Below, in pieces: positions 1,998 to 18,202 of a stretch of DNA of 64,000 nt. A model generated the notes under the pieces. It did no database searches, was not told where the DNA came from, and was given only the letters and a program-made list of their open reading frames with translations. Every line of letters starts with the position of its first letter. Positions within the stretch are counted from its first letter, which is position 1. The translations under genes and the position numbers were made by a program. The stretch comes from an uncultured bacterium (GTDB lineage: Bacteria; Oederibacteriota; JAAXVQ01): contig CAZSAP010000001.1 of assembly GCA_964604705.1 (NCBI GenBank), positions 363,500 to 427,499 of the forward strand, in the 5' to 3' direction.

Positions 1998-3296
1998 TTA
2001 TTTTTTCTGCAGTCCAGCTATGGCTGCATGCAAGTTTTGAAACAGCGTCTCCAAATCTTTGAGCGCTACGGCTGAGAACGCGAGGCGAATCAAACCCGCC
2101 AGCATGATCACGCCCGTACTGTAGGTTTTGATCAATTCTTTGCGCACCTCTTCGGCATCCACGCCCACGGGCTTCACGCACATGAAGTAACCGGAGTTGA
2201 ACGGCATGGGCTCGAAGCTGGTCTTATACTCCGGATGCTTGGCAAAAATCTCCTTGATGGCCTCATACCGCTTGCGCAAGATGGTGTACTTGACTTCCTT
2301 TTGCTTGGCATAGTCCGGGTGCTTGTAGGCTTCTAAAAGCATCTTCTGACCAATGCTTGAGCTGTTGGAGATGGCGCCGCGCACCACGCCGCCGGCTTTG
2401 TTTTCCATGGCCTTGAGTTGATCCGCCGTAGCGCCCTTGATGCCGAAGGTGATGAACCCAACCCGGAAGCCCCAGACGTAATCCTCTTTGGTGGGACCGT
2501 CCAACTTGACGGCCAACACGTTCTTATGCAGATCCGCCAAGGGCGCAAAAATCGACTCAAGGAAAATCCCCTGCTCGTACACCAAACCAAAATACGCATC
2601 GTCAATCAGCGCCACGATCTTCTTCCCGGCCTGAGCCGCCTTCTCAATCACCGCCACAATGGCTTTGGCCTCGGCTTCCGTCACAGTGTAGCCGGTCGGA
2701 TTGTTGGGGAAGTTTAGGAGCACCAGTTTCTTTTCACCCGGCTCATTGAGCTTCTGTTCCAACCCCGCCACATTGAACCCGCCATTGACGAACGTGGCAA
2801 ACGTGCTGAACTTGGCGCCGTAGGCTTCGCCAAAAATAAGTTCATAGTTGTCCCAATTCATATCCGGCAAGATGATAGTGTCCCCGGGATTGACAAACAA
2901 ATAGCCGGCCACACTTAGCCCGTGGGTCAGGGCGTTGGTGACCACCGGTAGGCTGGTTTCTTTGCCCTTGAGCGAAGGATTCTTCACACTCAGCATTTCT
3001 TTCCACTTGGTGCGCAGATCCGGCATACCAAAGCTGGGCATGTACAGGAATGACTGCGAGGGCAAGGTGGTCATGGCTTCCAGACACTCCAGGCAGAGCG
3101 GCGATCCGTCCTCTTCAAAGGCCGTGCCAATGGTGGCGTTCAGCTTCACATCCTTGGCTTCGGCCGATTGTCCGAGAATACCCTTGGATGGGAAATAAAT
3201 GGTTTTCCCACGTTCTGACAACACACTCATCGCGGCATTGTCCACCGCGCTGATTTTTTGGTTCAAGTCCTGTGCCAATGCGTTCAAATCTGCCAT
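1998..3296 (-). CDS. PLP-dependent aminotransferase, class I/II fold (LNFPNNPTG motif; DapL/aspartate-aminotransferase-like)
   Basis: 432-aa ORF with a GGAGG RBS 5 nt before the ATG. It has the aminotransferase class I/II hallmarks NPTG, GLVYE and KLDGPTKEDY. Confidence 0.75.
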   Translation of the reverse strand: MADLNALAQDLNQKISAVDNAAMSVLSERGKTIYFPSKGILGQSAEAKDVKLNATIGTAFEEDGSPLCLECLEAMTTLPSQSFLYMPSFGMPDLRTKWKEMLSVKNPSLKGKETSLPVVTNALTHGLSVAGYLFVNPGDTIILPDMNWDNYELIFGEAYGAKFSTFATFVNGGFNVAGLEQKLNEPGEKKLVLLNFPNNPTGYTVTEAEAKAIVAVIEKAAQAGKKIVALIDDAYFGLVYEQGIFLESIFAPLADLHKNVLAVKLDGPTKEDYVWGFRVGFITFGIKGATADQLKAMENKAGGVVRGAISNSSSIGQKMLLEAYKHPDYAKQKEVKYTILRKRYEAIKEIFAKHPEYKTSFEPMPFNSGYFMCVKPVGVDAEEVRKELIKTYSTGVIMLAGLIRLAFSAVALKDLETLFQNLHAAIAGLQKK

Positions 3297-3329
3297 AGGG
3301 CCTCCACGGAGTATTTCCGTTCATAGTAA

Positions 3330-3381
3330 AGGCGCCTCCTGGACCCCGGGGCAAAAACACCCCGGATACCAACAGGCGCCT
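3330..3381 (-). promoter_or_regulatory. Nested GC-rich hairpin in the 5' leader of the aminotransferase gene
   Basis: Outer stem aggcgcctcctgg (3330-3342) pairs with ccaacaggcgcct (3369-3381), 13 bp with 1 mismatch. Inner hairpin ccgggg-caaaaaca-ccccgg is at 3346-3365. A putative sigma-70-like promoter TTGACG-17-TATTTT lies just upstream on the minus strand. Confidence 0.35.
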
Positions 3382-3590
3382 ATAAAATTCGATGAATAAA
3401 ATATGGGTTTTTGGGCGATTCGTCAAGTATGTTTGAAACTTTTTCTCAGTGAGATAACTTCAGTATTTCAAGCCGAGTAATAATTAGTAGATGTACATTG
3501 TAATAAAACGGAATTATATTGCCTCTAACCAATATTGCAACCTTCTTTCGTCTGTGTCCAACTAATACTTCTATTGCTGAAAGGAATGAC

Positions 3591-4715
3591 ATGTCCTTTA
3601 AACTAAACCACTCCAGCCTATTTTGCTTAGCGCTACTGACCACGGCGCTGCTTGCATCTACTGCAACCTCAGGCGCCTTGGCTGCAGATAATGGAGGGGG
3701 TACAGGAAATACTTCACTAGCGCAAGCACTCCCTGCGACAAGACCGACCCCGGTTTCGGTGATCTTGCGCGACATAGCTATTACCAAAACCAGTGCACGC
3801 ACGGACTGGTTATGTGGAACGCTGGTCAACGAAAGCGAATCCTTTGTAGACACTGTGTTGGCTCGAATCGTGTACTGCGATAGTGAAGGAAACACCCTGG
3901 CCTATGAATACAAAAAACTTCTAGACTCCGCGGTGTTCACCTACCATGTGCCGCTCCAGCCCGGATACGCTCGTGAATTCAAAGTACCTTTAAAAAACGC
4001 ACCTAATTTATACAACGAAACTGTCGTGGACATCGCACGCGTAAAAAGCAAAGGATATGATGAATATTTTGTGCCCCTTGAGCCCAAGCTCGGCGCAGGT
4101 GTAGGCTGGGCCTACGGCAGCTGTGGAACCAACCTCGAATTGCTCATTGCCAATTTCTATGCTATCAGTCTAGGTGTAGGTAATGCTGCCTGGTTTGCGA
4201 CCGAACACTGGTCGGATGACGCTTCTGTCTACTCCTCTTCAACTATCACACTTCCTGTTTGCTACCTGCCGGGCACGCGCCTGTATATCGGTGATCCAGC
4301 CTCGTCTATACGCGGACGAATCGGATTCTTTTACGGTCCAACCCACTTATACGCAAAGCCCTACACTACCAAATATGAATGGATCATGGGATACCATCCC
4401 AGCCTTGGATTCCAATGGCGAATCTTCGAAAACGTGAGCTTGGACGTGGATGCGGAATGGGTGATTCCGCAGGAACACAGCAGAGACTACACCTACACAG
4501 AGACCCATACAGGTTGGGATTGGCACTACTGGCCGAACCCACCGCGCTCCTACACCTATACGGACAACCATACCCTACACACGGATTTTAAAAACTATTT
4601 CTCGCCATCGGTGGGCATCACCGTGCATTTTGGGGACCACGGAAAAATTTACGACGACATCAAGACTTCGCGTACCATTCACGTGCGCCAGTCAGAACCC
4701 TCAACCCAGCGCTGA
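3591..4715 (+). CDS. Hypothetical secreted protein (signal peptide; Trp/Tyr-rich C-terminal region)
   Basis: ATG at 3591 preceded by aaagga. N-terminus MSFKLNHSSLFCLALLTTALLASTATSGALA is signal-peptide-like. No motif recognised. Confidence 0.55.
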   Translation: MSFKLNHSSLFCLALLTTALLASTATSGALAADNGGGTGNTSLAQALPATRPTPVSVILRDIAITKTSARTDWLCGTLVNESESFVDTVLARIVYCDSEGNTLAYEYKKLLDSAVFTYHVPLQPGYAREFKVPLKNAPNLYNETVVDIARVKSKGYDEYFVPLEPKLGAGVGWAYGSCGTNLELLIANFYAISLGVGNAAWFATEHWSDDASVYSSSTITLPVCYLPGTRLYIGDPASSIRGRIGFFYGPTHLYAKPYTTKYEWIMGYHPSLGFQWRIFENVSLDVDAEWVIPQEHSRDYTYTETHTGWDWHYWPNPPRSYTYTDNHTLHTDFKNYFSPSVGITVHFGDHGKIYDDIKTSRTIHVRQSEPSTQR

Positions 4716-4737
4716 AAGCCTTACCCAGCGCTGGGTT
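4703..4737. terminator. Hairpin between convergent genes (3591..4715 + and 4746..7421 -)
   Basis: aacccagcgctg (4703-4714) pairs with cagcgctgggtt (4726-4737), a 12-bp stem. It overlaps the perfect palindrome cccagcgctggg (4724-4735). Confidence 0.45.
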
Positions 4738-4745
4738 TCATCCCT

Positions 4746-7421
4746 TTATCGCACCACCGCCACCTTGCTTTTCCCAATCTCTTTCCCGTCTTGCAAGACA
4801 CGCGCCACATAAATGCCTGGGGCGGTTGCGCGACAATTCCAAGCAACCAGGGTAATCTCGCCTTCGGCACCTTGGGCACTAAGCAGCGCCACGCGTTCGC
4901 CATGGACATTGTACAGCTGCACTTTCAGTTCCCCCGCCCCCTTACTCTGAATGGCAAAGGTCATTTGGTCGCGACCCGGATTGGGATATGCCAAAAATGC
5001 GCGTCCATGCAGATCTACGTTTATGCACGTGGGCGTGGTGGTGGTTGTCGGTGTCGTGGTGGCCGTGGCCGAGAGCGTCGGCGTCACGGTCACGGTGGGG
5101 GAAGGGGTCACGGTTTGCGTAATGGTGGGTGTCGCTGAAACGGTCGGGGTTACGGTCGGGGTCGGTGCCGGAACCAAGACATTCGCTGAAAACTCTGACG
5201 TGTTGCGCAGCGCATTCGTACTCAGTGCCGTAATCGATTCGCCGGGGTTCACGCCCGAAAAATTCAAAGTCCAGTTCGTACCCGTGGCTGTGGTGTTCCC
5301 CAGATACCGCAAACTACCACCGTTCAAGCCAGCGCTACGGCTCGCCGTAAAAAGTTCAATCGCATCTCCACTCTCACATGTCCCAGAAGCCTGATTCCAA
5401 ATCACCGAAGTGATTACCGGAGCAGACTTGTTTTGATTCCCACTGCTGTTTAAATTAATCCCTTTGAAGCTAAAGGCCGTGATGGTATTTCCCCACACAC
5501 CATTACCATCCACCGTCGCCCCTTCAATTCGAATTCCTGAAAATCCGCCTACAATCAAATTTCCAACGCCCGTATTTTTTAATCCCACATCATTTCCAAA
5601 AGCATTAGAGAGTAGGTGAATCCCAGATAAGCTCATGTTGGCGGTAGAGGGGCGACCGTCTGCGTGCACACCCATCCAATTGCCTACAATGGTGTTTCCG
5701 GTGCTATCCGTAATGATGATACCCGTGCCTTCGCCACAAATGATATTTTTCTCACTTGGCAATATCCCTCCAAACCGAGTGTACTGAGTGCGCGTCATCT
5801 GAACAACACTGTTTGTCCCATTGAGCACAGCAGGAATGGTATTTCCCGTGGCATCGGTCTGAAAATAATTGCCGCAAACCGTATGCCGAGTACCCATAAT
5901 AATCATGCCCGTTTGTGCACCATAAATCACATTGCGATACGCCGCCACCGCACCGCCGACCAGGGTTTGACTGGAATTCAGGTTTAAATAAATTCCGACA
6001 TTGTTGGTCATGGGAACCGTTCCCGTAGCATCCAGCCCAATCGTATTGCCGGTGATGGAATTGCCCGTCCCCGCATTGAGCATAATGCCAAAGGCTCCGT
6101 TCCCGGAAATGAGATTGCCATAGACATGGCTGCTATCTGTATTGGCTCCCCCAAATAAATTGCCATTTGAGCTAGAATATATACCGTAGTTAGAATTGGC
6201 CATAATGGCTGTTCCCGTGAGATTAACGCCAATTAAATTCCCGGCAATGGTGTTGCCACTGGCGCCAGAATCCATGCTAAAACCAAACCCGTTATTGCCA
6301 GAAATCACATTCCCTTCCAGTGCGCCCGGCGCGCGATTCCCCCCAATCAGGTTGGAACAAGCCGGACCCATGAGCAAGATACCCCGGTCATTGGGCATAG
6401 CCGTGTTTAGATCCGTCACACCAATGCGATTGTTTTGAACGCGGTTAAAATTAGCAGATGATCCGGCCTGAAACAAAATTCCAAGACCGTTTGATCCATT
6501 GCTATTCCCTGCGATGACGTTTCCAAATCCAGCCTGCGGCAAGCCGATATAATTCCCATCAGCCCAATTTCCCAGCACCACACCATAGTGATTTGGAAGT
6601 GCCGCTGTCTGTGTGATGTTTGGGCCCAAGAGGTTCCCACAGATAGTATTGCCTTGAGTCCCGGCTCCATTGAGGTAAACGGCCATAGACACATTTCCCG
6701 AAATGAGGTTACCCTCATCTAGCCCACTGCTGCCACGGTGCCCGCCAATCAAACATTGCGAGCTGCCGGACAAATACACGCCCGTGTTGTTGGCCATAGC
6801 TACCGTTCCTGTGGGGTCAGTGCCAATATAATTATTTTGAACGATCATGCGGGTTGAACTCAACGCATAAATGCCATAGTTGATATTTCCGGATATAACA
6901 TTGCCACCTGCAGGGGTTCCCACCACTACGTCTGATGCTGAATTTGTATAAACGCCGGTGTTGTTCCCTTTGCCTGTAGCGCCAGCCCAATTGGTGCCGA
7001 TGTGGCAGTTTTGAATGCGTACCGCGGTCTGGGCAACAATCGCTTGATTGCCGTCAATTAGTGCCACACCGTCGAGCACCGATCCTTCTGACCCTGGCAG
7101 GAAACCAATCAGATCTCTGCGCACAGCACCACTGCCAATCACCACTGTGCCACCGCCATTGATGGCGACTTGCTCTGAAACCGTGAGCGTGCTGCCAATC
7201 ACGGTAATGGAGTTGCCACCGGCGAGGGCAAACGTGATGTTGTGCGGGCCGGTGAGCGTATTGGCTTCATCCAGCGCGCCCCGCAAGGTGTTTATGGACC
7301 CACTCGGATCGACCACACTGGTTACGACATAGTCTTTGGAAAAGCACGGAACCGTCAGCAAACCTAGACCCACACCCATTATACAAAGCACACGATAAAA
7401 CCCAAACTTAGTCATCAACAT
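4746..7421 (-). CDS. Secreted parallel beta-helix repeat protein with Thr/Pro linker and T9SS-type C-terminal sorting domain (cargo paralog B)
   Basis: 891 aa. Signal peptide, then KDYVVTSVVDPSGSINTLRGALDEAN motif and many GN.I.GN beta-helix repeats. Linker [24 protein letters not shown]-terminal domain ends ...[30 protein letters not shown] lies 6 nt before the second in-frame ATG, so the true start may be at 7415. Confidence 0.8.
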   Translation of the reverse strand: MLMTKFGFYRVLCIMGVGLGLLTVPCFSKDYVVTSVVDPSGSINTLRGALDEANTLTGPHNITFALAGGNSITVIGSTLTVSEQVAINGGGTVVIGSGAVRRDLIGFLPGSEGSVLDGVALIDGNQAIVAQTAVRIQNCHIGTNWAGATGKGNNTGVYTNSASDVVVGTPAGGNVISGNINYGIYALSSTRMIVQNNYIGTDPTGTVAMANNTGVYLSGSSQCLIGGHRGSSGLDEGNLISGNVSMAVYLNGAGTQGNTICGNLLGPNITQTAALPNHYGVVLGNWADGNYIGLPQAGFGNVIAGNSNGSNGLGILFQAGSSANFNRVQNNRIGVTDLNTAMPNDRGILLMGPACSNLIGGNRAPGALEGNVISGNNGFGFSMDSGASGNTIAGNLIGVNLTGTAIMANSNYGIYSSSNGNLFGGANTDSSHVYGNLISGNGAFGIMLNAGTGNSITGNTIGLDATGTVPMTNNVGIYLNLNSSQTLVGGAVAAYRNVIYGAQTGMIIMGTRHTVCGNYFQTDATGNTIPAVLNGTNSVVQMTRTQYTRFGGILPSEKNIICGEGTGIIITDSTGNTIVGNWMGVHADGRPSTANMSLSGIHLLSNAFGNDVGLKNTGVGNLIVGGFSGIRIEGATVDGNGVWGNTITAFSFKGINLNSSGNQNKSAPVITSVIWNQASGTCESGDAIELFTASRSAGLNGGSLRYLGNTTATGTNWTLNFSGVNPGESITALSTNALRNTSEFSANVLVPAPTPTVTPTVSATPTITQTVTPSPTVTVTPTLSATATTTPTTTTTPTCINVDLHGRAFLAYPNPGRDQMTFAIQSKGAGELKVQLYNVHGERVALLSAQGAEGEITLVAWNCRATAPGIYVARVLQDGKEIGKSKVAVVR

Positions 7422-7494
7422 CCTCCGGTAAAAGTAACAATCATGCTAAACGTGAGTTCAATTCTGAACTTCTCGCTATTATTTCGTGTCCACG

Positions 7495-7573
7495 TTTGTC
7501 ATTTCGAGAGGCGTGAGCCTCGAGAAACCTTGTTTTAAAAGCGAGATCTCTCGCTTCACTCGAGATGACAAAC
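7495..7573 (-). promoter_or_regulatory. Conserved structured element (copy 1) upstream of cargo gene B
   Basis: On the minus strand, TTTGTCATCTCGAG...CTCGAAATGACAAA forms a 13-bp closing helix. It encloses the gcgaga-tc-tctcgc hairpin and the GAGGC-UCAC-GCCUC hairpin. It shares the 12-mer TTGTCATCTCGA and helix geometry with 9601..9671. Confidence 0.4.
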
Positions 7574-7658
7574 ATGGTTATCAATTCCAAGAGAACCGCT
7601 AGGCATGCCCTTACGGATTTTCTTTTGCATTTTTTATTCACTTTCCTTTTATAATTGT

Positions 7659-9578
7659 CTATCTCACCACTGCAACTTTGGTCTTACCAACTTCCTTGCC
7701 ATCGAGACTTATGCGCGCGATATATAGCCCGGGTGCCACGCTAGAGCAATCCCAGACAACCACCCCACGCCCCGCAGGCAACGAGTCTGTCACCACACCC
7801 ACCGGCTCCCCGTTTAAATTGGTCATTTGGATTTTCACCTGTACGGCCCGATCCGGATCTACCAAAAACTTCACCTGTTCGCGACCCGGGTTGGGGTACG
7901 CTAGGAAAAGTTTGCCGGTTAAATCTACGTCAGAAAAAGCATTGCGCGGTGTCGGGGTTAAAGTCATAGTTGGCATCACAGTTGGTGTGATCGTGGCCGA
8001 GGGTGAAACCGTGCTTGTCGGGGTTACCGTGGGTGTGCCGTAACGGCCGCCATCGGTGATGGTCCAGTGGCTGCCGCTGGTTAATATCGCGCGGTGCATT
8101 TCCGCTGCCACTGAGTTAAAACGGCTGTGCCCGCCGTCAAACACAACATTGGGTTGTACGCTCTGGTCGGCCCAGCCGGTGAGCAGCGCATCGTAGTTGG
8201 CACTTGTCAGTGTTATTCCGCTGAACATCCCGGAGGCAGACGTCAACGCCCCCACATTCCAACTTCCCAAATTCTGATTAAACGCCACTGCTCCGTTGAA
8301 CATGGTTAACATATACAAGACCTTGCTTGTGTCCCAGGCAGCGATATCCTGATTGAAGGCCACGGCATTGGAGAACATGCTCGACATGTTCGTCACCTTG
8401 CTTGTATTCCAGGCGGCGAGATTTTGATTGAACGCCGCAGCACCGAAAAACATGCTGCTCATGTTCGTTACATTCGCCGTGTCCCAAGTTCCAATCGGCT
8501 GGTTAAACGCACTCGCATTATAAAACATCGAGTCAAACCTTGTTACCGCCCCCGTGTTCCAACCTCCAATCGGCTGGTTGAACGCAGTGGCGCCGGAAAA
8601 CATCGTATTCATGTTCGTCGCATTCACGGTATTCCAAGTTCCAATGAGCTGGTTAAACGCTGTCGCGTTGCGAAACATCGAGTCAAACCTAGTGACCGCC
8701 CCTGTGTTCCAAGCCCCAATCGGCTGGTTGAACGCACTCGCACCATAAAACATCGTACTCATGTCGGTCACCTTCGCCGTGTTCCACCCTGAGATATTCT
8801 GATTGAAAGCCGCAGCGTTTTGGAACATTCTCTGCATACTCGTCACATTGGCTGTGTTCCATCCACTGATATTTTGGTTAAATGCGCTGGCACCGGAAAA
8901 CATGGACGTCATGTATTTAACTGCACCCGTATTCCAGGCTCCAATTGGCTGGTTGAATGCAGCAGCACCGGAAAACATGCTGCTCATATTTTCCACACTT
9001 GCAGTATTCCATCCGCTGATATCCTGATTAAATGCACTGGCATTAGAAAACATCCCTTGCATGTTTATCACATGGCTGGTATCCCACCCAGTCATACTCT
9101 GATTGAGTGAACTGGCGTTCCAAAACATATAGCCCATATAGGTAACATTGGATAAATTGGGCGCGTCACTGGCCGCAAGGGTCAGGTTGGAACAGCCGGC
9201 AAACGCATTGAACATGGTGATCCAGGCTCCGGTGCCCCATTGTTCTATCGTAAGCAGCTTTTGCCGGTCCCCGTCGCCGTTAAAATATATTTGCGGGAAC
9301 GTATTGCGAATTCGCACGGTGTAAGTGCCGGGCGTTGCATAGACGCACGTGGTGTTTCCAGTAATGCCGGTGTATTCCCAGGTATCCAACCCCTGCAAAT
9401 CCACGTCGTAATTGTACCCACTGCCTGCGGTCGGGATGGTGAATTGGTTGGAAGCCGAGGACCCGGGGTTGTCGGTCTTCACCGTGATGATGAAGTAATC
9501 CGTGGTTGCAGCCTGAGTTGCAGCAGCAAGCAAGAGCCCCGCAAGACTTAAAAACAATTTCCTAAAAACATTTTTCAT
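7659..9578 (-). CDS. Secreted DUF285/BspA-type repeat protein with Thr/Pro linker and T9SS-type C-terminal sorting domain (cargo C)
   Basis: 639 aa. Signal peptide MKNVFRKLFLSLAGLLLAAATQA, then about 12 tandem ~22-aa repeats of the form SMF..A.AFNQ.I..WNT..VT.M. Linker TPTVTPTSTVSPSATITPT. The C-terminal domain is ~93% identical to that of gene D. Confidence 0.8.
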   Translation of the reverse strand: MKNVFRKLFLSLAGLLLAAATQAATTDYFIITVKTDNPGSSASNQFTIPTAGSGYNYDVDLQGLDTWEYTGITGNTTCVYATPGTYTVRIRNTFPQIYFNGDGDRQKLLTIEQWGTGAWITMFNAFAGCSNLTLAASDAPNLSNVTYMGYMFWNASSLNQSMTGWDTSHVINMQGMFSNASAFNQDISGWNTASVENMSSMFSGAAAFNQPIGAWNTGAVKYMTSMFSGASAFNQNISGWNTANVTSMQRMFQNAAAFNQNISGWNTAKVTDMSTMFYGASAFNQPIGAWNTGAVTRFDSMFRNATAFNQLIGTWNTVNATNMNTMFSGATAFNQPIGGWNTGAVTRFDSMFYNASAFNQPIGTWDTANVTNMSSMFFGAAAFNQNLAAWNTSKVTNMSSMFSNAVAFNQDIAAWDTSKVLYMLTMFNGAVAFNQNLGSWNVGALTSASGMFSGITLTSANYDALLTGWADQSVQPNVVFDGGHSRFNSVAAEMHRAILTSGSHWTITDGGRYGTPTVTPTSTVSPSATITPTVMPTMTLTPTPRNAFSDVDLTGKLFLAYPNPGREQVKFLVDPDRAVQVKIQMTNLNGEPVGVVTDSLPAGRGVVVWDCSSVAPGLYIARISLDGKEVGKTKVAVVR

Positions 9579-9600
9579 TTACATGCTCCTTATAATTGAC

Positions 9601-9671
9601 TGCCATGTCGAACAAAGTGAGAAATCTTGTTTGTCAAAGACAGCTCTCTCACCAGCGTTCGAGATGACAAC
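9601..9671 (-). promoter_or_regulatory. Conserved structured element (copy 2) upstream of cargo gene C
   Basis: On the minus strand, GTTGTCATCTCGAAC...GTTCGACATGGCAG forms a 13-bp closing helix with the bulge at the same position as copy 1. It has compensatory differences (GAG/CUC becomes AAC/GUU) and an internal GUGAGA...UCUCAC helix. Confidence 0.4.
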
Positions 9672-9708
9672 TCATTTTTTAAAAAACAACATAGCTGATA
9701 TTTTATCA

Positions 9709-9740
9709 TCGTAGGGGCGACCCGGTGGTCGCCCCTACGA
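9709..9740. terminator. Perfect 14-bp stem hairpin between cargo genes D and C
   Basis: tcgtaggggcgacc-cggt-ggtcgcccctacga, followed on the plus strand by attttcttttgtaattttt. On the minus strand it lies 57 nt after the D stop codon. Confidence 0.5.
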
Positions 9741-9796
9741 ATTTTCTTTTGTAATTTTTAATCACTTTCCATTTTCAATTTTCAATTCTCGATTTT

Positions 9797-11665
9797 CTAT
9801 TTAACCACCGCAACTTTACTCTTCCCAACCTCTTTGCCATCCAACAGAATACGTGCGATGTAAAGTCCGGGTGCCACGCTAGAGCAATCCCAGACAACCA
9901 CCCCACGCCCCGCAGGCAGTGAGTCTGTGACCACACCCACCCGCTCCCCGTTTAAATTGGTCATTTGGATTTTCACCTGTACGGCCCGATCCGGGTTCAG
10001 GAGAAACTTCACCTGCTCGCGCCCCGGGTTAGGATACGCTAGGAAAAGCTTACCCGTTAAATCGACGTCCTCCAAAGCACTGCGCGGTGTTGCGGTTAAG
10101 GTCGCGGCGGCTGCACCCGAGGTGGGTGTCGGAGTGGCTGTGGGTGTGCTGGTATGGGTCAGTGTCGCTGTCAAGGTAGGTGTAACTGTAGGCGAAGCTG
10201 TGCTTGTAGGTGTGACTGTACTTGTGGGCGTATACGCCAAGCTGCAGCCCATGGTGTTTGAGTGCCAGGTCTGGTACACACCGTTGCGGGCGCGTACGCG
10301 GTAATAATACGTCCCTTGACTGGTCAACCCCGTGACCGACCACGAGGTAGCGTTCCCCACCAGGCTATTTCCCCAGCCGCTGACCAGATTGATAAACATG
10401 TTATCCGTAGCCACGTCCAGGGCATAATCCGTGGCGCCAGCAACGGATTGCCAGTTGGCGGTAAACGCGGTTGGGCTTTGCACAGTAGGCGCCAGCGCCA
10501 CAGGCAAGGTGCCGTTATATTCCACGCTGCCTTTGTCTGCCGTGTTCACCCGCAGAAACCCGCGCGCATCCACAAAGGGTACACTTCCGCCGGTGACTGG
10601 ATCGACGGCGAAGCTGCTGCTTGCAGGCAAACATGTCTGCACATACCCGCCGTAATCAGCCAACGGTGCTAAATTCGCAGGCACCTTGCTCGCTTCCGTG
10701 CCCACCACGTCTCCGGAGGTCCAGGTGTACGTATATGCCCCAGTAGAACCCACCAGATTATTTCCCAAAGACGTAAAGACTCCGCTAATTAATAAAATGT
10801 CGGAATTGCCTCCGGTTTGCACTTGATTGCCAGCCACGATGCAAGATTGCATACTGGTTGTACACGTATCGAAAGCAATCCCCCCAATACCATTGGTCGT
10901 GTTGTTGCCGGTAATGGTACAGTGATTCATCGTCGCTGTACTAATCCCGAAAAGAATGGCGCCGTTACTCTGCGAGTTATTTCCATAGATCGTAACATTG
11001 CTGCAGATGATGCTCCCCATGCTTGTACAGATCGCGCCGTTATTTTGAGCAGAATTATTGCTGATCAAAGAATTGTAAAGCTCTGTTTGCGCATTGTAGG
11101 CAAACAGACCTCCTCCAGAGGTGTTCGAACTGCCACTTCGCGTGGCGTTGTTGTTTACCACCTGGCAGCGGTTTAGGGTCAACGTGCCTTGGTCATTGTA
11201 AATACCGGCCCCCGAAGCACTCACAATGCTGGCCACCGCGTTGTTATTGGCCACGCTACACTGATCCAGTGAAAGCGCCGCACCTGAGTTGATGCGGATG
11301 CCCGCGCCATTGCTGTCTGTGATTTTGCCATTGCAAACCGTCATTCCTGAAAGTACGCTCGCGCCCGAAGTAACATCGAATACCCGGAACAAATTGCCGC
11401 CACTCACATAGAGCCTGGATACACCAGGACCCACGATGGTCAAACTTTTGTTGATCGTCAGCGTGGACCCTAAGGTAATGGTAGCGCCGGCGGGTAGGTT
11501 AAAATCGATGGTTCCTCCGTTCGCAGAATCCGCTATGGCCTGACGCAATGTCCCAGCGCCGGAATTCGCATTGCTGGTAACCGTAATGGTCGCCGCCTGG
11601 GTAGAGACCACCGACAACACCCACACCCCTAAAAACCATCCTAATCCCACATGTCGCTTAATCAC
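9797..11665 (-). CDS. Secreted CSLREA-motif beta-helix protein with FN3-like domain, Thr/Pro linker and T9SS-type C-terminal domain (cargo D; tandem duplicate of E)
   Basis: 622 aa with a GTG start preceded by AAAAGGAG and a 6-nt spacer. The N-terminal ~90 aa are almost identical to E ([31 protein letters not shown]). Motif YALDVATDNMF...YYYRVRARNG is FN3-like. C-terminus ends ...KVAVVK. Confidence 0.8.
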   Translation of the reverse strand: MIKRHVGLGWFLGVWVLSVVSTQAATITVTSNANSGAGTLRQAIADSANGGTIDFNLPAGATITLGSTLTINKSLTIVGPGVSRLYVSGGNLFRVFDVTSGASVLSGMTVCNGKITDSNGAGIRINSGAALSLDQCSVANNNAVASIVSASGAGIYNDQGTLTLNRCQVVNNNATRSGSSNTSGGGLFAYNAQTELYNSLISNNSAQNNGAICTSMGSIICSNVTIYGNNSQSNGAILFGISTATMNHCTITGNNTTNGIGGIAFDTCTTSMQSCIVAGNQVQTGGNSDILLISGVFTSLGNNLVGSTGAYTYTWTSGDVVGTEASKVPANLAPLADYGGYVQTCLPASSSFAVDPVTGGSVPFVDARGFLRVNTADKGSVEYNGTLPVALAPTVQSPTAFTANWQSVAGATDYALDVATDNMFINLVSGWGNSLVGNATSWSVTGLTSQGTYYYRVRARNGVYQTWHSNTMGCSLAYTPTSTVTPTSTASPTVTPTLTATLTHTSTPTATPTPTSGAAAATLTATPRSALEDVDLTGKLFLAYPNPGREQVKFLLNPDRAVQVKIQMTNLNGERVGVVTDSLPAGRGVVVWDCSSVAPGLYIARILLDGKEVGKSKVAVVK

Positions 11666-11725
11666 TCGCTACTCCTTTTGGCTATGCCGATTTTCTATTC
11701 TCTTTTTTCTATTGTCTTTTAATGT

Positions 11726-13630
11726 CTAGCGTACGACCGCCACCTTGCTCTTCCCGATCTCTTTGCCGTCCATGGAGATGCGAGCCAGATAAAGTCCGGG
11801 TGCCACGCTACGGCAATCCCAGGTTATTGTCCCTTTGCCGGCTGGAATGTCACCCATAACCACGGCTACCTGTTCCCCATTTAGATTGAATAAAACAATT
11901 TGAATCTGCACCGCATGCTCTGGGTTAAACATAAACCGAATCTGCTCGCGCCCCGGGTTAGGATACGCTAGGAAAAGCTTACCCGTTAAATCGACGTCTT
12001 CCAAAGCACTGCGCGGTGTTGCGGTTAAGGTCGCGGTTGGCACCGGGGTCTGTGTGCTCGTAAACGTCGCAGCGGCTGCACCTGAGGTGGGTGTTGGAGT
12101 TGCTGAGGGTGTACAGGTTTGGGTCAGTATCGCGGTCAATGTCGATGTAACTGTAGGCGTCGCCGTGCTTGTGGGTGTCACGGTGCTCGTAGGCGTGTAG
12201 GCTAGGCTGCATCCCGTCGTGTTCGAGTGCCAGGTCTGGTACGCACCGTTGCGGGCGCGAACGCGGTAATAATACGTCCCTTGACTGGTCAACCCCGTGA
12301 CTGACCACGAGGTGGCATTGCCCACCAGGCTATTGCCCCAGCCACTGACCAGATTGATGAACATATTATCCGTGGCCACGTCCAGAGCATAATCCGTGGC
12401 CCCAGTCACCGCCTGCCAGTTGGCCGTAAACGCGGTTGGGTTTTGCACCGTGGCAGGTAGAGCCACGGGTAATGTGCCGTTGTATTCCACGCTGCCTTTG
12501 TCCGCGGTGTTCACCCGCAGAAACCCGCGCGCATCCACAAAGGGTACACTTCCACCGGTGACTGGATCGACGGCCAAACTACTGCTCGCGGGCATGCATG
12601 TCTGCACATACCCGCCGTAATCAGCCAACGGTGCTAAATTCGCAGGCACCTTGCTCGTTTCCGAGCCCACCACGTCTCCGGTGGTCCAGGTGTATGTATT
12701 TGCCCCAGTAGAACCCACCAAATTGTTTCCCAAGGACGTGAATGTTCCGTCAAAAAAAATGTCGGAATTGGCACCGGACTGCACTAGATTGCCGGCCACA
12801 CTGCAAGACTGCAGGGTGGTTGTGCAATTAAAGCAAGCAATTCCCCCAACACCATTTGCCGTATTGTTGCAAGTAATGGTGCTATGATCCAAGGTCACTG
12901 TGCTGCCCGCGCAATACACGGGGCTGTTAGTCTGCGAATTATTTCCGTAGATCGTGACATTGCTGAAGGTTAATGTCCCCGAATAACCATTAATCGCACC
13001 GCCAATTCGGGCAGAATTATTGATGATCGTAGAATTGTAAAGCGCTGTTTGCGCAAAATATGCAGACAGTCCTCCCCCAAACGTATTCGGACCGGAAGTG
13101 GTGCGCGTGACGTTGTTGTTCGCCACCTGGCAGCGGTTTAGGGTCAGCGTGCCTTGGTCATTATAAATGCCACCTGCTTCAGCGTCCATACCGCTGGCAA
13201 CCGTGTTGTTATTGGCAATCGTGCACTGGTCCAGGGAAAGCGCCGCGCCTGAATTGATACGGATGCCTGCACCATTGGTGTCAGTGACCTTGCCATTGCA
13301 CACTGTCATTCCGGAAATAAAGCTCGTACCCGAAGTAACGTCGAACACCCGGTACAAATCGTTTCCACTCACATAGAGCCTGGACACACCTGGGCCCACG
13401 ATCGTCAAACTTTTGTTGATGGTCAGTGTGGACCCTAAGGTAATGGTAGCGCCGGCGGGTAGGTTAAAATCGATGGTTCCTCCGTTCGCAGAATCCGCTA
13501 TGGCCTGACGCAATGTCCCAGCGCCGGAATTCGCATTGCTGGTAACCGTAATGGTGGCCGCCTGGGTAGAGACCACCGACAACACCCACACCCCTAAAAA
13601 CCACCCTAATCCCGCATGTCGCTTATTCAC
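11726..13630 (-). CDS. Secreted CSLREA-motif beta-helix protein with FN3-like domain, Thr/Pro linker and T9SS-type C-terminal domain (cargo E)
   Basis: 634 aa with a GTG start. The same AAAAGGAGTAGCGA-GTG upstream context as D. The C-terminal domain has diverged from D's. Confidence 0.8.
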   Translation of the reverse strand: MNKRHAGLGWFLGVWVLSVVSTQAATITVTSNANSGAGTLRQAIADSANGGTIDFNLPAGATITLGSTLTINKSLTIVGPGVSRLYVSGNDLYRVFDVTSGTSFISGMTVCNGKVTDTNGAGIRINSGAALSLDQCTIANNNTVASGMDAEAGGIYNDQGTLTLNRCQVANNNVTRTTSGPNTFGGGLSAYFAQTALYNSTIINNSARIGGAINGYSGTLTFSNVTIYGNNSQTNSPVYCAGSTVTLDHSTITCNNTANGVGGIACFNCTTTLQSCSVAGNLVQSGANSDIFFDGTFTSLGNNLVGSTGANTYTWTTGDVVGSETSKVPANLAPLADYGGYVQTCMPASSSLAVDPVTGGSVPFVDARGFLRVNTADKGSVEYNGTLPVALPATVQNPTAFTANWQAVTGATDYALDVATDNMFINLVSGWGNSLVGNATSWSVTGLTSQGTYYYRVRARNGAYQTWHSNTTGCSLAYTPTSTVTPTSTATPTVTSTLTAILTQTCTPSATPTPTSGAAAATFTSTQTPVPTATLTATPRSALEDVDLTGKLFLAYPNPGREQIRFMFNPEHAVQIQIVLFNLNGEQVAVVMGDIPAGKGTITWDCRSVAPGLYLARISMDGKEIGKSKVAVVR

Positions 13631-13681
13631 TCGCTACTCCTTTTGGCTACGCCGATTTTCTATTCTCTATTTTCTATTGTT

Positions 13682-15850
13682 CTAGCGAACAACCGCCACC
13701 TTACTCTTCCCAATCTCTTTCCCATCTTGCAGCACGCGCACCAGATACAAGCCTGGTGCAACTGTGGTACAGTTCCATATCACGCTGTTAACATTATCTC
13801 CCGTGACTTGAGCGCTTAAGGTGGCCACGCGTTCGCCGCTCATGTTGTATATCTGAATCTTCGCCTCACCCTCGCCTGTGGGCTGAAACGCCAAGGTTAT
13901 CTTGCCTTTACCCGGATTCGGATACGCCACAAGGGTTTTGCCTTTCAGATCAAGTCCACTGCGTTCCAAGGTCGCTGTCAGCGTGGGCGTGTTGGTGGGC
14001 GTCAGCGTTACAGTTGACGTAAGGGTAATGGTCGCCGAAACCGTCTGCGTGGCGGAGATCGTCGAAGTCGCTGAAATGGTCGGGGTAGATGTGAAGGTCA
14101 TCGTGGGCAAGACCGGCGAAACAGTCGAGCTGGGTGTCGCGGTCGGTGTGACCGAGGCCGTGGCCGACTGGGTCCGAGTAGGTGTGGCCGTAGAGGTCGG
14201 AGTGGCCGTAACCGAGGGTGTGGCCGTAGTGCTCGACGAGGGCGAGGTGGCCGTGGCGGTCGGTGTGGCCGTTATGGTCGCAGTCCGCGTGGCCGTATAG
14301 GTAGATGTGCTCGTGCGTGTCGGTGTGGAGGTACGGGTAGGGGTTTGTGTAATCGTGGGCGTAGCCGTAGGTGTATAGGTTACCGTTGACGTCAACGTCG
14401 GAGTCGCCGTGGTGGTGGGCGGCGTTCCGGTGGTTAAGCAAGAAATCGTGTTGGAGTGATAGGTCTGTTCCGTTCCATTGAGGGCGCGCACCCGGTAGTA
14501 ATAGGTCGTGCCGGAAAGTAAACCGGTCACGCTCCATGAGGTGGCATTGCCTACCAGACTGTTCCCCCAGCCACTGACCGGGCTGGTAAATCCACTGTCT
14601 CTGGCCACGTCCAAGGCATACCCTTGCGCGCCGATGACCGCGTTCCAGTTGGCCGTGAAGCCGTTGTCCCCCGTGCCCGTTGCCGCTGTGGCTACTGGCA
14701 GCGTGCCGCTGTATTCTGCCGAGCCCTTGTCCGCAGTGTTTACGCGGAGGTATCCGCGGGCATCCACCCACGAGGCGCTGCTGCTGGCTGGGTCAATGGT
14801 GGAACTACCAACGTTGGGCAGACACACGGGGACATACCCACCGTTGTCCGCGAGACTACCCAGCTGGGCATCCTGTGGGCTGCCCGAAGTACCGATTAGG
14901 TCACTGGCGTCCCAGGTGTAGAGATACGTTGCATTCCTGATCCCCACGATATTATTTCCCAGAGACGTGAGACTGCAGGACATAAATAAAGTGTCTTCGT
15001 TCCAACCGCCACCATTGAGGTGCAGATTTTGAGCCACCACTGTATTCTGGAGGAAAAGCATCGAACCAATCATGACCATTTCCGTCGAGTCGGCCCGGTT
15101 CCCGGTGATGGTGCAATTGATCGCCGCCAAGGTACACGACGAGTAGCCCAGCAAAGAACCGTATCCAGTGGCTGTATTGTTGGAGGCTGTTACATTGACC
15201 AGCGTAGCGGAACTGCCCGATTGGGCAATCCCCGACCCCCAAGACCCGGCATTCTCGGAGATAGTGCTGTTGTATACATACAAGGGGCCGGTGCTGTAAA
15301 TGGCACCGCCATAGGAATTGCCCGAACTAAACGGAATAGCATTGCTCCGTACCGTACAATGGTTCAAGGTCAATGTCCCACCCCGGTTGGCAATACCGCC
15401 TCCACATATCCCTGAAACCAGATCCACCGCGCGATTGTATTGGATCGAGCACTGTTCCAATGTCAGCGTGGCTGCACTGCTCATATAAATACCTGCACCG
15501 CCGTTGGTTGTGTCCGTGGTCCGCCCATGGGCAATGGCGAGTCCGACAAGGGTATTACTGCCACCGGTAACCGCCAAAACACGTACTGTGTCCTGCCCGC
15601 TGAGAATGAGCTGCGTTGCCCCCGGTCCGACCACGGTCACACTCTTGGTCAAGGCCAGTGTCGAACTCAGGTTAATGGTGGCAGGATATGAAAGACTAAA
15701 GGTAATGACATCACCATTGCTCGCATCAGCCAACGCTTGCCGCAGCGTGCCCGCCCCGCTGTCCGCCGAACTGGTAACCGTGATGGTGACCGCCTGGGCC
15801 GATGCTGTTAAATACAATCCCAAACTCAGACTTACCAGAATACGTTTCAT
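13682..15850 (-). CDS. Secreted CSLREA-motif beta-helix protein with long Thr/Pro/Ser linker and T9SS-type C-terminal domain (cargo F)
   Basis: 722 aa. Signal peptide [20 protein letters not shown], then [27 protein letters not shown] ~130-aa T/P/S linker follows. C-terminus ...[25 protein letters not shown]. Confidence 0.8.
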
Positions 15851-15954
15851 GATTACTCGCCTTTGTGTGAATTTCCCTGCAGAAGGGTGCCAGAGACGGC
15901 AGAGATCTTACCAAATCAACCTTCAGGGTACAACCTTTTGGTTCAATGACAATT

Positions 15955-15997
15955 GTAAAAAAAAAAACGCCCTTTTTGGAAATCCCAACGGGGCGTT
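15955..15997 (-). terminator. Rho-independent terminator downstream of cargo gene G
   Basis: aacgccc (15966-72) pairs with gggcgtt (15991-97). On the minus strand it is followed by an 11-T run (rc of the a-run at 15950-15965). Confidence 0.6.
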
Positions 15998-16081
15998 TTC
16001 CGAACGTTAAAACACTAGGCCGACCGCCGGTCGCCTCTACGTTTTTTTAAACTTCACTTTCCATTTTCGATTCTCGATTTT

Positions 16082-18202
16082 CTATCTTACCACCGCGACT
16101 TTGGTCTTCCCAATCTCTTTCCCATCCTGCACAACGCGCACCATGTACAAGCCCGGTGCGATGGACCCACAGTTCCATATCACACTGGCTGTGGTTTCAC
16201 CGCTTACCTGCGCGTTTAAGGTTGCCACACGTTCGCCGCTCATGTTGTATATCTGTATCTTCGCCTCGCCATTACTTGTAGGCAAAAAGGCGATGGTGAT
16301 TTTTTCTTTACCTGGATTGGGATACGCTAAAAGTTTTTTACCAAAAAGATTTAAGCTTGATCGCTCAGGTGATGCTGTGGGCGTGGGGGTCACAGTTGAA
16401 GTCGTTGTGGTAGTAGCAGTCTGAGTAATGGTTGCCGATACTGTGAGTGTGGGCGTGACTGTAGCAGTTATTGTGTGCGTAGCGGAATGAGTGTAGGTCG
16501 CTGACACAGTCAGCGTGGGCGTAACGGTTGCTGAGGCTGTGGCTGTAGGCGTACCCGTAGGTGTCATGGTCGTGGTACTGGTACGCGTGGCGGTTGGACT
16601 TGAGGTCCGGGTTGGTGTAGCAGTAGGCGTGGCCGTGGCACTGGGCGTGGGTGTGAATGTTGGCGTCACGACCATGACATTGGTCGAATAACACGATGTG
16701 CCATACTGGGATTGATTCGTGGAGAGCGCACACACATTGTTCCCAGCAGAAAGCCCGCCTGCCACATTTACCGCCCAGGTATAAGGCCCGGTTCCACTAC
16801 TTGAGGTGGTGTATCCAAGTAACCTCAATGCACCGCCTTGATCGCCCCCAGTGCGATTGGCTTCTGCTGCATACACTTCCACATACTCTCCAGGATAATA
16901 CGACGTCCCCTCCACCCGAGTCGGTTGTGCAAGCGTGATCACCGGACGCATGGATGAAGGACGGATATTTTCATTATAGACATAGGGGTTGGTGTTGCTG
17001 CCCGCAAACCCGCATTGCGTGTTGCCGTAAAACTGATACAACCCCGTGCTCGGCGGTGCATACAATTGGGTGTTGTAAAGCAAATTGCCCACACCGCCGT
17101 TGGGTGTTCCGATGATGTTGCCGGTCGTGGTATTGTAAAAAGTAATATAACTAAAATCGCCAATCCCTTGTGTCCCGGCTACGTTGGTGCCAAAGCAATT
17201 GCCAACAACTGTATTACTGCTCGCTCCCGTATAAAAAATGACATGAGTCATATTGCCGGTAAATATATTTTTATCAAGCACCGGGTTGCTTCCGCCCACC
17301 AAATTCCCGGTTCCCTTGTCGAAAACAACGCCGTATTGGAACGGATGGATACCATTCGTACTGCTGATGCCTATCAAATTGTTTTGGATATAATTGTTGT
17401 TGCTGGGGTTGTAGCCCCCGATTCGAATGGCAGTTCCACCAGTGTTGTCCGAGTGGCCAAAAACATTACCCCACCCAGAGAGCGCAATACCCACCCGGTT
17501 GTTCCCGGTTCCGTCCACCATAAGATCAGCGCTAGCCATGCTAAACGTGCCATTGTTGATGGCAACAGACTGGTCAGAACTTAATCCGAATATATTTCCC
17601 GCAATCACATGATTGCTTCCATAGGCCATTACACCATAATTGGAATTGCCTGAAATGACATTACCCTCGCCTGCCAAGCGATCGCCGCCAATGAAAATGC
17701 GGTTGCCATTACCAATGTTGATTCCAATATAATTGCCCTGCCCACTGGAGTTATTCCAATCGGTTCCAATGGCGCAACGCATGATGCGGACATCACTTAC
17801 TTCATTTTCGATATCTATGGCATATAAAGAATGCACCAAGGCCATACCCGTCAGCGTGCTGCCCGAAGAATCATAACCTCCAGATCCAGTGTATTTGTCC
17901 ATGAAAAATATCGCAACGCTCGAAGCGCTGCGGGAGCCTATGGTTACTCCATTGCCTTCAATAATGACTGTATTTGTAATGACGATTTGGCTATAAACCG
18001 TGATGGAGTTGGGCACCTGGCAGACAATGGTCTGCACGCCCGTGGTGGTGTTCGAGGCGGCAATGGCCTGACGCAATGTTCCTGGACCGCTGTTTTCCCG
18101 GCTGGTGACCACGAACGTCTCTCCCCAGGCAGCCTGAGTACATATCAACAGTACGAGCATGGCAATCCAACTCAAATTCATTTTCGCCTTCATCATCTTC
18201 AA
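16082..18202 (-). CDS. Secreted CSLREA-motif beta-helix protein with Thr/Pro linker and T9SS-type C-terminal domain (cargo G; paralog of the edge gene at 1..1728)
   Basis: 706 aa. MNLSWIAMLVLLICTQAAWGETFVVTSRENSGPGTLRQAIAASNTTTGVQTI. C-terminus ...[59 protein letters not shown]. Confidence 0.8.
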   Translation of the reverse strand: MKMMKAKMNLSWIAMLVLLICTQAAWGETFVVTSRENSGPGTLRQAIAASNTTTGVQTIVCQVPNSITVYSQIVITNTVIIEGNGVTIGSRSASSVAIFFMDKYTGSGGYDSSGSTLTGMALVHSLYAIDIENEVSDVRIMRCAIGTDWNNSSGQGNYIGINIGNGNRIFIGGDRLAGEGNVISGNSNYGVMAYGSNHVIAGNIFGLSSDQSVAINNGTFSMASADLMVDGTGNNRVGIALSGWGNVFGHSDNTGGTAIRIGGYNPSNNNYIQNNLIGISSTNGIHPFQYGVVFDKGTGNLVGGSNPVLDKNIFTGNMTHVIFYTGASSNTVVGNCFGTNVAGTQGIGDFSYITFYNTTTGNIIGTPNGGVGNLLYNTQLYAPPSTGLYQFYGNTQCGFAGSNTNPYVYNENIRPSSMRPVITLAQPTRVEGTSYYPGEYVEVYAAEANRTGGDQGGALRLLGYTTSSSGTGPYTWAVNVAGGLSAGNNVCALSTNQSQYGTSCYSTNVMVVTPTFTPTPSATATPTATPTRTSSPTATRTSTTTMTPTGTPTATASATVTPTLTVSATYTHSATHTITATVTPTLTVSATITQTATTTTTSTVTPTPTASPERSSLNLFGKKLLAYPNPGKEKITIAFLPTSNGEAKIQIYNMSGERVATLNAQVSGETTASVIWNCGSIAPGLYMVRVVQDGKEIGKTKVAVVR

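Follow-up and report, generated by a model that had tools for sequence, protein, structure and literature searches.

Within the operons of Escherichia coli, as between malE and malF, repetitive extragenic palindromic (REP) sequences act as stabilizers of mRNA 3' ends or as attenuators. The STRR heptamers of cyanobacteria and the "long simple sequence repeats" are further intergenic heptanucleotide repeats, and the Correia, ERIC and BIME-type composites are nested palindromic extragenic elements or resemble miniature inverted-repeat transposable elements (MITEs). Gene conversion shapes families of surface proteins, including the rgpA, kgp and hagA genes of Porphyromonas gingivalis, which exchange adhesin domains, and the opa and pil genes of Neisseria. 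REPs have the appearance of GTAG-tagged palindromes downstream of open reading frames (ORFs) (Di Nocera et al. 2013, PMC3733652). TAACTGA heptamer repeats have been described in Beggiatoaceae, Cyanobacteria and Bacteroidetes, with binding by S1, cold-shock proteins (Csp) or CsrA-type proteins proposed (MacGregor 2015, PMC4679880), and the FLO genes of yeast are surface-protein paralogues under concerted evolution by gene conversion (PMC3512402). Here we analyze a repeated intergenic module that has something of each of these systems. It lies in a 64,000-nt stretch of DNA, hereafter the window, from an uncultured bacterium of the Oederibacteriota (GenBank assembly GCA_964604705.1, contig CAZSAP010000001.1, forward-strand positions 363,500 to 427,499), where it recurs between genes for secreted cargo proteins.

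Read in the direction of the genes, the long form of the module consists of a heptamer tract that opens with the stop codon, an A-rich block (block 2), a GTAG-headed GC palindrome, and a further palindromic element (element 3). We propose that it is the shared flank, made of generic repeats, of a recombining family of cargo genes of the type IX secretion system (T9SS), and that its hairpin is a REP-like element acting at mRNA 3' ends or as an attenuator. We put the probability of this reading at roughly 0.6. The family comprises six consecutive minus-strand genes, B to G, spanning 4.7-18.2 kb of the window (all positions are those of the window):

4746-7421, minus strand: gene B, TAA stop, NosD-like cargo
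7659-9578, minus strand: gene C, TAG stop, DUF285 (PARCEL-repeat) cargo
9797-11665, minus strand: gene D, TAG stop, beta-helix / choice-of-anchor-Q / fn3 cargo
11726-13630, minus strand: gene E, TAG stop, beta-helix / choice-of-anchor-Q / fn3 cargo
13682-15850, minus strand: gene F, TAG stop, beta-helix / choice-of-anchor-Q / fn3 cargo
16082-18202, minus strand: gene G, TAG stop, cargo part without a recognized domain

A profile search matched PF18962, the C-terminal T9SS type A sorting domain, to all six genes (28.1 against a cut-off of 27 for gene B). TIGR04183 (Por_Secre_tail) matched C, D, E, F and G as well as a gene at 36554-39493, with 28.5-40.8 bits against a cut-off of 23. The nearest named homologues of the array proteins are those of Candidatus Firestonebacteria. 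The junction module is absent at gene B and at the sorting-domain gene 36554-39493.

The history of the array was read from the sliding identity between its genes. Identity between D and E is 93-100% over the junction and the initial ~300 nt of the gene; it is 63-96% in the central part and drops to 55-73% in the sorting domain. C and D have ~520 nt in common, a stretch that begins where the linker ends and takes in the sorting domain, stop codon, tract, hairpin and element 3; before the end of the Thr/Pro linker the two are unrelated, and within the sorting domain one 40-nt window is 100% identical. Their block 2 is 75-82% identical, and element 3 beyond it is still recognizable. D and G, in turn, have nearly identical tracts, yet their sorting domains are of different subtypes (44% protein identity). 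Two coding segments take part in these shared blocks:

7662-7980, minus strand: part of C coding for the sorting domain; its identity to D 9800-10116 is 72-100%
11440-11665, minus strand: 5' coding part of D; this part and the E->D junction match E 13405-13630 and the F->E junction at 90-100% identity

Because the homology crosses stop codons into coding DNA, the junctions were copied together with the gene ends. To this extent a first-pass annotation of the sequence, which held that the array had expanded along with its intergenic cassette, is borne out. Expansion of one simple cassette is not, since tract type does not track sorting-domain type, a pattern that indicates a mosaic of conversion patches. 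D matches E, C and G in different segments and is therefore a three-way mosaic. To judge from its high identity, the D/E 5' block appears to be a recent conversion tract, and the simplest reading of the sequence as a whole would be that tandem duplication came first and that gene conversion or unequal crossing-over then acted repeatedly. Gene C has the makeup of a domain graft, a D-like sorting domain plus 3' flank whose 5' boundary falls at the DNA repeats of the Thr/Pro linker. Separately, 75-nt tandem DNA repeats (8271-9099) build the DUF285/PARCEL-repeat protein of this gene.

These same identities would also be expected if the module had no function at all and had merely hitch-hiked, neutrally, in duplication and conversion, with selfish repeats inserted by chance. 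The C/D flank (75-82%) and the sorting domain (80-100%) are roughly alike in identity, and the D/E junction (93%) can be set beside its 5' coding sequence (96-100%). This alternative is a minor possibility in our view, and it is taken up again with the conservation between organisms below.

The tract itself is a degenerate heptamer repeat, (NGARAAT)3-5, which in the D, E, F and G junctions has the TAG stop codon as its start. The stops and tracts are located as follows:

9762-9799, minus strand: D stop and tract; TAG at 9799-9797, then AAAATCGAGAATTGAAAATTGAAAATGGAAAGTGA
16054-16084, minus strand: G stop and tract; TAG at 16084-16082, then AAAATCGAGAATCGAAAATGGAAAGTGA
7638-7661, minus strand: C stop, reduced tract ACAATTATAAAA, and GGAAAGTGA
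13631-13684, minus strand: F->E junction, 54 nt; TAG, tract ACAATAGAAAATAGAGAATAGAAAATCGG, GCGTAGCC, Shine-Dalgarno AAGGAG, GTG of E
11666-11728, minus strand: E->D junction, 63 nt; layout as in F->E, with the tract variant AATAGAAAAAAGAGAATAGAAAATCGG
13655-13680, minus strand: tract span within F->E
11690-11716, minus strand: tract span within E->D

The shared sequence that the first-pass annotation saw behind the TAG stops of D and G is thus present on the minus strand. In register, the D tract reads [T-AGAAAAT][CGAGAAT][TGAAAAT][TGAAAAT][GGAAAGT]GA and the G tract [AGAAAAT][CGAGAAT][CGAAAAT][GGAAAGT]GA. G differs from D by one substitution and has one TGAAAAT unit fewer, so that 30/31 positions are identical besides the 7-nt indel. 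The number of units also differs between these two and the tract of a related contig, L395, described below. At C, most of the heptamer tract is lost and the junction reads TAGACAATTATAAAAGGAAAGTGAATAAAAAATGCAAAAGAAAATCCGTAAGGGCATGCC, with the reduced version TAGACAATTATAAAAGGAAAGTGA. The double unit GARAATNGARAAT occurs 8 times, counting overlaps, in the 64 kb, where 0.07 occurrences are expected from shuffled sequence; all 8 are at the D, E, F and G junctions and on the gene strand. Array junctions likewise hold 4/4 of the occurrences of TAGAAAATCG in the window, 5/5 of those of ATAGAAAAT, and 3/4 of those of GGAAAGTGA. Within the 64-kb window, then, the motif is confined to the array and does not recur in unrelated intergenic regions.

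TAG is the stop codon of 5/5 genes C-G, compared with 9/36 other long ORFs of the window. Over all 41 long ORFs the counts are TGA 3, TAA 24 and TAG 14, in sequence of 52% GC; because the ORFs are intact under the standard code, the rarity of TGA does not signify recoding. Read-through of the stop codon into an extended frame was considered and rejected, as the frame closes within 5-14 codons and is not conserved as protein. Phase variation by slippage is also unlikely, because the tract sits between the stop codon and the ribosome-binding site, and changes in unit number therefore leave both the frame and the spacing between ribosome-binding site and start codon unaltered.

The two short junctions, F->E and E->D, follow the consensus (A)CAATAGAAAA(T/A)AGAGAATAGAAAATCGGC(G/A)TAGCCAAAAGGAGTAGCGA-GTG, with the 3' part (G/A)TAGCC-AAAAGGAG-TAGCGA-GTG. 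Their motif AATAGAAAATCGGCRTAGCC, previously placed 25 nt before the GTG, starts 34 nt and ends 14 nt upstream of it. Short and long junctions can be aligned up to AGAAAAT-CGGCGTAGCC in the one versus AGAAAATTCGTAGGGGC in the other. The tract is therefore found 14 nt before GTG in 2/5 junctions and 150-200 nt from the next start codon in 3/5. Scans of the short junctions found neither a terminator nor a promoter, and for this reason at least F, E and D look co-transcribed.

At C, D and G, the tract continues into GGAAAGTGA, an A-rich stretch, and the GTAG-headed GC palindrome:

9741-9761, minus strand: A-rich block 2 of D, TTAAAAATTACAAAAGAAAAT, between tract and hairpin; read on the plus strand, it gives the hairpin a T-rich tail
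9709-9740, minus strand: D hairpin, TCGTAGGGGCGACC-ACCG-GGTCGCCCCTACGA, with a perfect 14-bp stem and a 4-nt loop, about -26 kcal/mol
7596-7637, minus strand: C block 2, ATAAAAAATGCAAAAGAAAAT, 82% identical to that of D, and collapsed hairpin CCGTAAGGGCATGCCTAGCGG
16015-16040, minus strand: G counterpart of the D hairpin, GTAGAGGCGACCGGCGGTCGGCCTAG, homologous and GTAG-headed but degenerate, about -10.5 kcal/mol
15957-15999, minus strand: canonical intrinsic terminator after G, AAAACGCCCC...GGGCG followed by T11, outside the shared module

The palindrome is intact only after D, where the fold of the D->C region has z = -7.3; it is degenerate after G and collapsed after C, so that of the three members of this family in the window two have decayed. 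Its earlier placements, ggcatgcc at 7602-7609 (within a degenerate REP-like copy, 7596-7616), the 14-bp stem at 9709-9740 and cgaccgccggtcg at 16021-16033, are all correct. The second block assigned to C, D and G is shared as far as the A-rich stretch and palindrome are concerned, but G lacks the AAAAGAAAAT(T/C) part and carries AAAAAAACGTAGAGGC plus its degenerate hairpin. In D, the palindrome GTAGGGGCGACC-ACCG-GGTCGCCCCTAC (9710-9739) has the REP features of a length of 20-40 nt, GC richness and GTAG at its end. The copies also have the position of REPs, 40-60 nt past a stop codon and between genes on the same strand.

The first-pass annotation spoke of a terminator/promoter cassette, and neither label survives. 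Directly 3' of the D hairpin the sense strand reads GAUGAUAAAAUAUC, with no U tract, and a terminator scan scored the hairpin as canonical on the plus strand only; on the gene strand it is not an intrinsic terminator. The canonical terminator of G lies ~40 nt beyond the hairpin of the G module, and since G has this separate terminator, the module hairpin is not the terminator there. The T11-tailed terminators after G and after gene H show that the genome does use canonical ones. Regarding promoters, a scan found no convincing sigma-70 promoter in D->C.

That the D hairpin looks like a terminator on the opposite strand raises the idea that the hairpin and the T-rich complement of the tract stop plus-strand transcription, either guarding against antisense entry or forming the end of a small antisense RNA that faces the 5' part of C. 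On the plus strand, no terminator-like site in 15 kb scores higher than 9709-9740 followed by ATTTTCTTTT (14 pairs, of which 10 are GC), the scan also flags the GGCTAYGCC hairpins of both short junctions on that strand, and the plus-strand gene 3519-4715 converges on the array. However, the array contains no plus-strand genes or predicted promoters, and in most other genomes the tract is purine-rich in the sense direction after genes on its own strand, which makes the gene strand the relevant one. A hairpin, being a palindrome, is by itself uninformative about strand. We regard the antisense explanation as very improbable.

Further GTAG-headed intergenic hairpins occur in the window at 63743-63766 (plus strand), 30328-30356 and 27294-27320 (minus strand), just past the stops of unrelated genes, namely at the kdpA/kdpB junction, amt, and an amino-acid permease gene. 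The family of the 27320 hairpin, of the recurring type GTAGGGCAAGG...CCTTGTCCCC, is found again in L395 (~700-725), and a hairpin GGGGCGA...TCGCCCCTACGA recurs in another related contig, L123 (~150-185). The recurrence of such hairpins suggests REP-like families in this lineage.

The C->B and D->C junctions have one more piece in common, which the first reading had overlooked: a palindromic element of ~70 nt, TGTCATCTCGA...TCGAAATGACA, whose right end is TCGA(A/C)ATG(A/G)CA and whose form is GTCATCTCGAG...CTCGAAATGAC. This element 3 dominates the predicted folds of both junctions:

9601-9669, minus strand: D->C copy, TGTCATCTCGAACGCTGGTGAGAGAG...TTCGACATGGCA, its end ~22 nt short of the C start codon
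7497-7570, minus strand: C->B copy, TGTCATCTCGAGTGAAGCGAGAGATC...CTCGAAATGACA, sharing 92% identity with its L395 counterpart

The element belongs to a family 73-99 nt long, GTCAT-YY-CGA-GCGNAGC-GAG-RR-ATC...RRATGAC, present on 44 contigs of a viral collection (L350-L393). Both Y-R pairs are retained in 45/45 distinct copies (TC/GA 22, CC/GG 14, TT/AA 8, CT/GG 1), and this complete covariation of the left arm indicates that the family is under structural constraint. In the left arm, tandem G-A flanks the GCGNAGC core, a known hyper-stable DNA mini-hairpin motif. The arrangement suggests a structure formed in single-stranded DNA or in RNA. A comparison of the whole window with Rfam gave no match at the gathering threshold, and for 3200-16300 there was no match even at E <= 1.

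Contig L395 (JGI 3300044477) carries the complete long module. Besides the tract and block 2, it has the GTAGGGGCGACC stem, whose loop is enlarged by an insertion of 30 nt, and element 3 (~605-685); orthologues of the gene A leader and of gene A follow, in synteny with the window. As a yardstick we used the gene A orthologue, whose protein is 99% identical and whose synonymous third positions agree at 74%. Against this 74%, element 3 is identical at 76/83 positions (P = 7e-5), block 2 with the hairpin arm at 39/43 (P = 0.007), and the tract at 33/38 (P = 0.05). We conclude from this comparison that the module has been kept in the lineage and that, of its three parts, two exceed the synonymous level in conservation.

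This bears directly on neutral hitch-hiking. The conservation of element 3 and block 2 between two organisms, the perfect 14-bp hairpin of D, the retention of the module at the syntenic site in L395 and the covariation of the left arm of element 3 over 45 copies all speak against a functionless module. In favor of hitch-hiking are the signs of decay, namely a collapsed hairpin in C, a degenerate one in G and loss of the tract in C, and the fact that all three building blocks are widespread generic repeats.

In L123 (Logan SRR19603255), a short junction stands before a 53%-identical paralogue, and a similar tract lies past that paralogue's stop codon. Upstream of the junction there is no sorting-domain gene, only an orphan sorting-domain tail of ~50 nt (tail and junction lie at 265-375), which may be either the footprint of a recombination breakpoint or what is left of a deleted neighbor. 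A hybrid tract in contig L394 links the "short" and "long" types. Farther away the tract disappears: none was found within 90 nt of the stop codon in 77 distant sorting-domain genes from JGI metagenomes (0/77), nor at five more distant homologue loci (L001, L124, L321, L323 and L324), and we therefore rejected the tract as a general feature of T9SS sorting-domain genes. L396 contains a module-free sorting-domain gene (369-677) 1.2 kb from a DDE_Tnp_1 insertion sequence (1917-2855).

The tract has relatives far outside this lineage. A scan with GAAAATNGAGAATNGAAAAT, one genome per species, gave at least 120 loci (L003-L122). Among the matches listed, the phyla include Bacteroidota, Verrucomicrobiota, Chloroflexota, Patescibacteria, Planctomycetota, Cyanobacteria, Firmicutes and others; nearly all matches are part of a longer intergenic (GARAATN)n tract, usually of at least 4 units, and ~21% of the tracts have an inverted partner tract nearby. 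Viral contigs (L125-L200) gave 88 matches versus 24 and 16 for two composition-matched periodic controls, and the tract is 3-5 times as frequent as such controls. A crude ORF analysis placed the purine-rich orientation at the 3' end of a long ORF on the same strand in at least 50 cases, versus 14 antisense, among the genome matches listed, and in 29 versus 9 on viral contigs. The suggestion that ATAGAAAAT is a regulatory motif private to this array must accordingly be abandoned, as it belongs to a class of heptamer repeats found in many phyla.

The palindrome, too, is of a class with other members, GTAGGGGCGAC-N3-12-GTCGCCCCTAC, which is present on 24 contigs of the viral collection; the exact GTAGGGGCGAC hairpin is absent from all heptamer-selected loci. 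Searches of the literature by sequence string for tract, hairpin and element 3 returned only coincidences with primers. Tract, palindrome and element 3 each belong to a widespread extragenic repeat class that is apparently undescribed by sequence. Composites of a tract with a GTAG-headed hairpin behind it, repeated locally and similar to the long junction of the window, were seen in unrelated taxa, in L084 (Parabacteroides faecalis; ~100-210 and ~850-950) and on the viral contig L147 (11377-11461 and 11563-11640). As a single cross-phylum unit the composite was rejected, given that GT[AG]G-headed hairpins lie near 7/123 tracts versus 84/1023 control ORF ends.

It is conceivable that selection keeps the junctions alike because the tract is an array of binding sites for a regulator of single-stranded RNA or DNA, such as S1, a cold-shock protein or a CsrA-type protein; it would then mark gene ends and intercistronic junctions and control the translation or decay of cargo mRNA. 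The precedent is TAACTGA (PMC4679880). Over-representation of the heptamer class and its preferred orientation at same-strand 3' ends would fit such a role, as would the position of the tract directly 5' of the ribosome-binding site in the short junctions and its identity with L123 at 26/27 positions, where adjoining synonymous sites are near saturation over most of their length. On the other hand, the first 40 codons beside the tract are unusually conserved as well (72% of third positions), and a block of conversion or concerted evolution explains the L123 identity equally well. Units that contain TGA or TAG close reading frames, so the orientation bias is partly built in. Nor do the remaining details suit a binding site: in the long junctions the tract lies far from the start of the following gene, unit number and spacer base (C, T, G, A) vary freely in a slippage-like manner, C dropped the tract yet kept the rest of the module, and the distant sorting-domain genes and homologue loci do without it. 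We consider a regulator-binding role unlikely.

A bolder version of this idea takes the purine-rich tract to be a strand-specific, cross-phylum cis-element placed directly after stop codons and read by a conserved factor that binds single-stranded nucleic acid, or by the ribosome as it terminates. With the hairpin, it would in this Firestonebacteria lineage make up a portable 3' "finishing module" that is grafted onto new cargo genes together with the sorting domain, possibly by recombination between the Thr/Pro-linker repeats and the tract. We hold this to be decidedly unlikely.

The recurrence of the module at gene boundaries and its imperfect palindrome might also recall site-specific recombination sites of the integron attC kind, by which cargo genes would move as cassettes, and the orphan tail and junction before a gene in L123 resemble a cassette insertion. 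A role of the repeats as a recombination motif had been floated before, but it finds no support: the window contains no transposase, integrase or recombinase among its 41 large ORFs. Homology fades gradually into coding DNA in patches of differing age, with no fixed crossover; the short junctions lack the palindrome; and L396 has an insertion sequence nearby but no module. With no integrase in the window and with graded boundaries that differ between gene pairs, the junctions are not attC sites of an integron, and cassette mobility is extremely improbable here.

We therefore return to the recombining cargo family with a flank of generic repeats. In this model, tandem duplication would have come first, followed by patchy gene conversion or unequal crossing-over between paralogues, in which pieces of junction may have travelled with the upstream sorting domain (C/D), with the downstream 5' end (D/E), or alone (the D/G tract). 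The short junctions would have arisen by deletion, which removed the hairpin and the downstream spacer and fused the tract to the ribosome-binding site of the next gene. An F-E-D operon would result, with C and B possibly co-transcribed too, and slippage would alter the number of heptamer units. The module would be transcribed within the mRNA, where its anatomy and the behavior of E. coli REPs suggest a role: by analogy, the hairpin may serve as a barrier to exonucleases at 3' ends or as a partial attenuator, grading the expression of upstream versus downstream cargo. The C-poor, unstructured tract may keep the terminating ribosome off the hairpin, and in the short junctions it would form an A/U-rich leader immediately 5' of the ribosome-binding site.

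Several observations weigh against this model. On the plus strand, the hairpin with its T-rich tail is a textbook terminator, which a model built on the sense strand leaves unexplained. In the D copy, GTAG is paired with CTAC rather than being an unpaired tag as in REPs, and no RAYT gene was seen in the 64 kb that hold these few copies, Y1_Tnp not being found among the 41 large ORFs of the window. The cross-phylum preference of the tract for sense 3' ends hints at a role more specific than that of a spacer. Finally, the synonymous yardstick rests on a single gene, and concerted evolution, or mobile-element copies close to their family consensus, could explain the excess conservation.

If the model is right, a bacterium of a candidate phylum is diversifying its secreted repertoire by swapping the sorting signal and the non-coding 3' flank as one block, even onto unrelated cargo. 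For annotation, the GC hairpin past these genes should not be taken for a terminator on the gene strand. Three repeat classes found by working outward from this locus, the (GARAATN)n tracts, the GTAGGGGCGAC-type palindromes and the GTCATTCCGAG-GCGNAGC element, yield many spurious small ORFs in metagenomes.

The remainder of the window is ordinary chromosome, with glnA, a sigma-54 activator, ammonium and other transporters, kdpA and biosynthetic enzymes. Three large ORFs lack a Pfam or NCBIfam match: 3519-4715 (plus strand), 35127-36272 (plus strand) / 35130-36353 (minus strand), and 44211-45509 (minus strand). The first of these, which converges on gene B, has a signal-peptide-like N-terminus, and the syntenic region of L395 lacks both this ORF and gene B. 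Upstream of an aminotransferase gene (1998-3296) there is a structured leader at ~3297-3430 (minus strand), ATAGGCGCCTGTTGGTATCCGGGG...CCCCGGGGTCCAGGAGGCGCCTTTA, with a second hairpin before the ribosome-binding site. It is 86% conserved with L395, compared with 74% at the synonymous sites of the gene, has no Rfam match at E <= 1, and is possibly a cis-regulatory RNA.

How, then, does the module compare with the systems described above? With REPs it shares a GC-rich palindrome of 20-40 nt with a 5' GTAG, placed between co-oriented genes and plausibly transcribed; several distinct GTAG-headed hairpins are present in the one genome, and the palindrome class is also found in unrelated contigs. 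Unlike REPs, the copies have common flanks, which indicates that they spread by duplication of the locus and not by independent insertion.

The heptamer tract resembles the TAACTGA repeats in having tandem 7-nt units, 2-6 copies per set, that are intergenic, strand-biased and scattered over phyla; the units contain stop codons, and the sets often overlap a stop or sit just upstream of a start. It differs in its unit, GARAAT-N, which is purine-rich and C-poor and favors the position directly after a stop rather than before a start, and in that about a fifth of the copies elsewhere have an inverted partner with which they could form a long hairpin. By its sequence, the tract qualifies as a heptanucleotide direct repeat, analogous to the TAACTGA family and not a member of it.

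Element 3 is MITE-like in its length (70-100 nt), its terminal inverted repeats GTCAT...ATGAC, its intergenic position, its conserved internal hairpin and its presence in many unrelated contigs, although it has no sequence relation to the named families and no target-site duplication was seen. As in other arrays under gene conversion, paralogues for secreted proteins swap segments, and the result is mosaic identity with homogenized ends; here, however, the exchanged unit includes the non-coding junction, and a sorting domain with its 3' flank has come to stand on the unrelated cargo of C. The module is not a new system. It combines elements of familiar types (a simple-sequence repeat, a palindrome of the REP-like sort and a MITE-like element) that gene conversion has homogenized.

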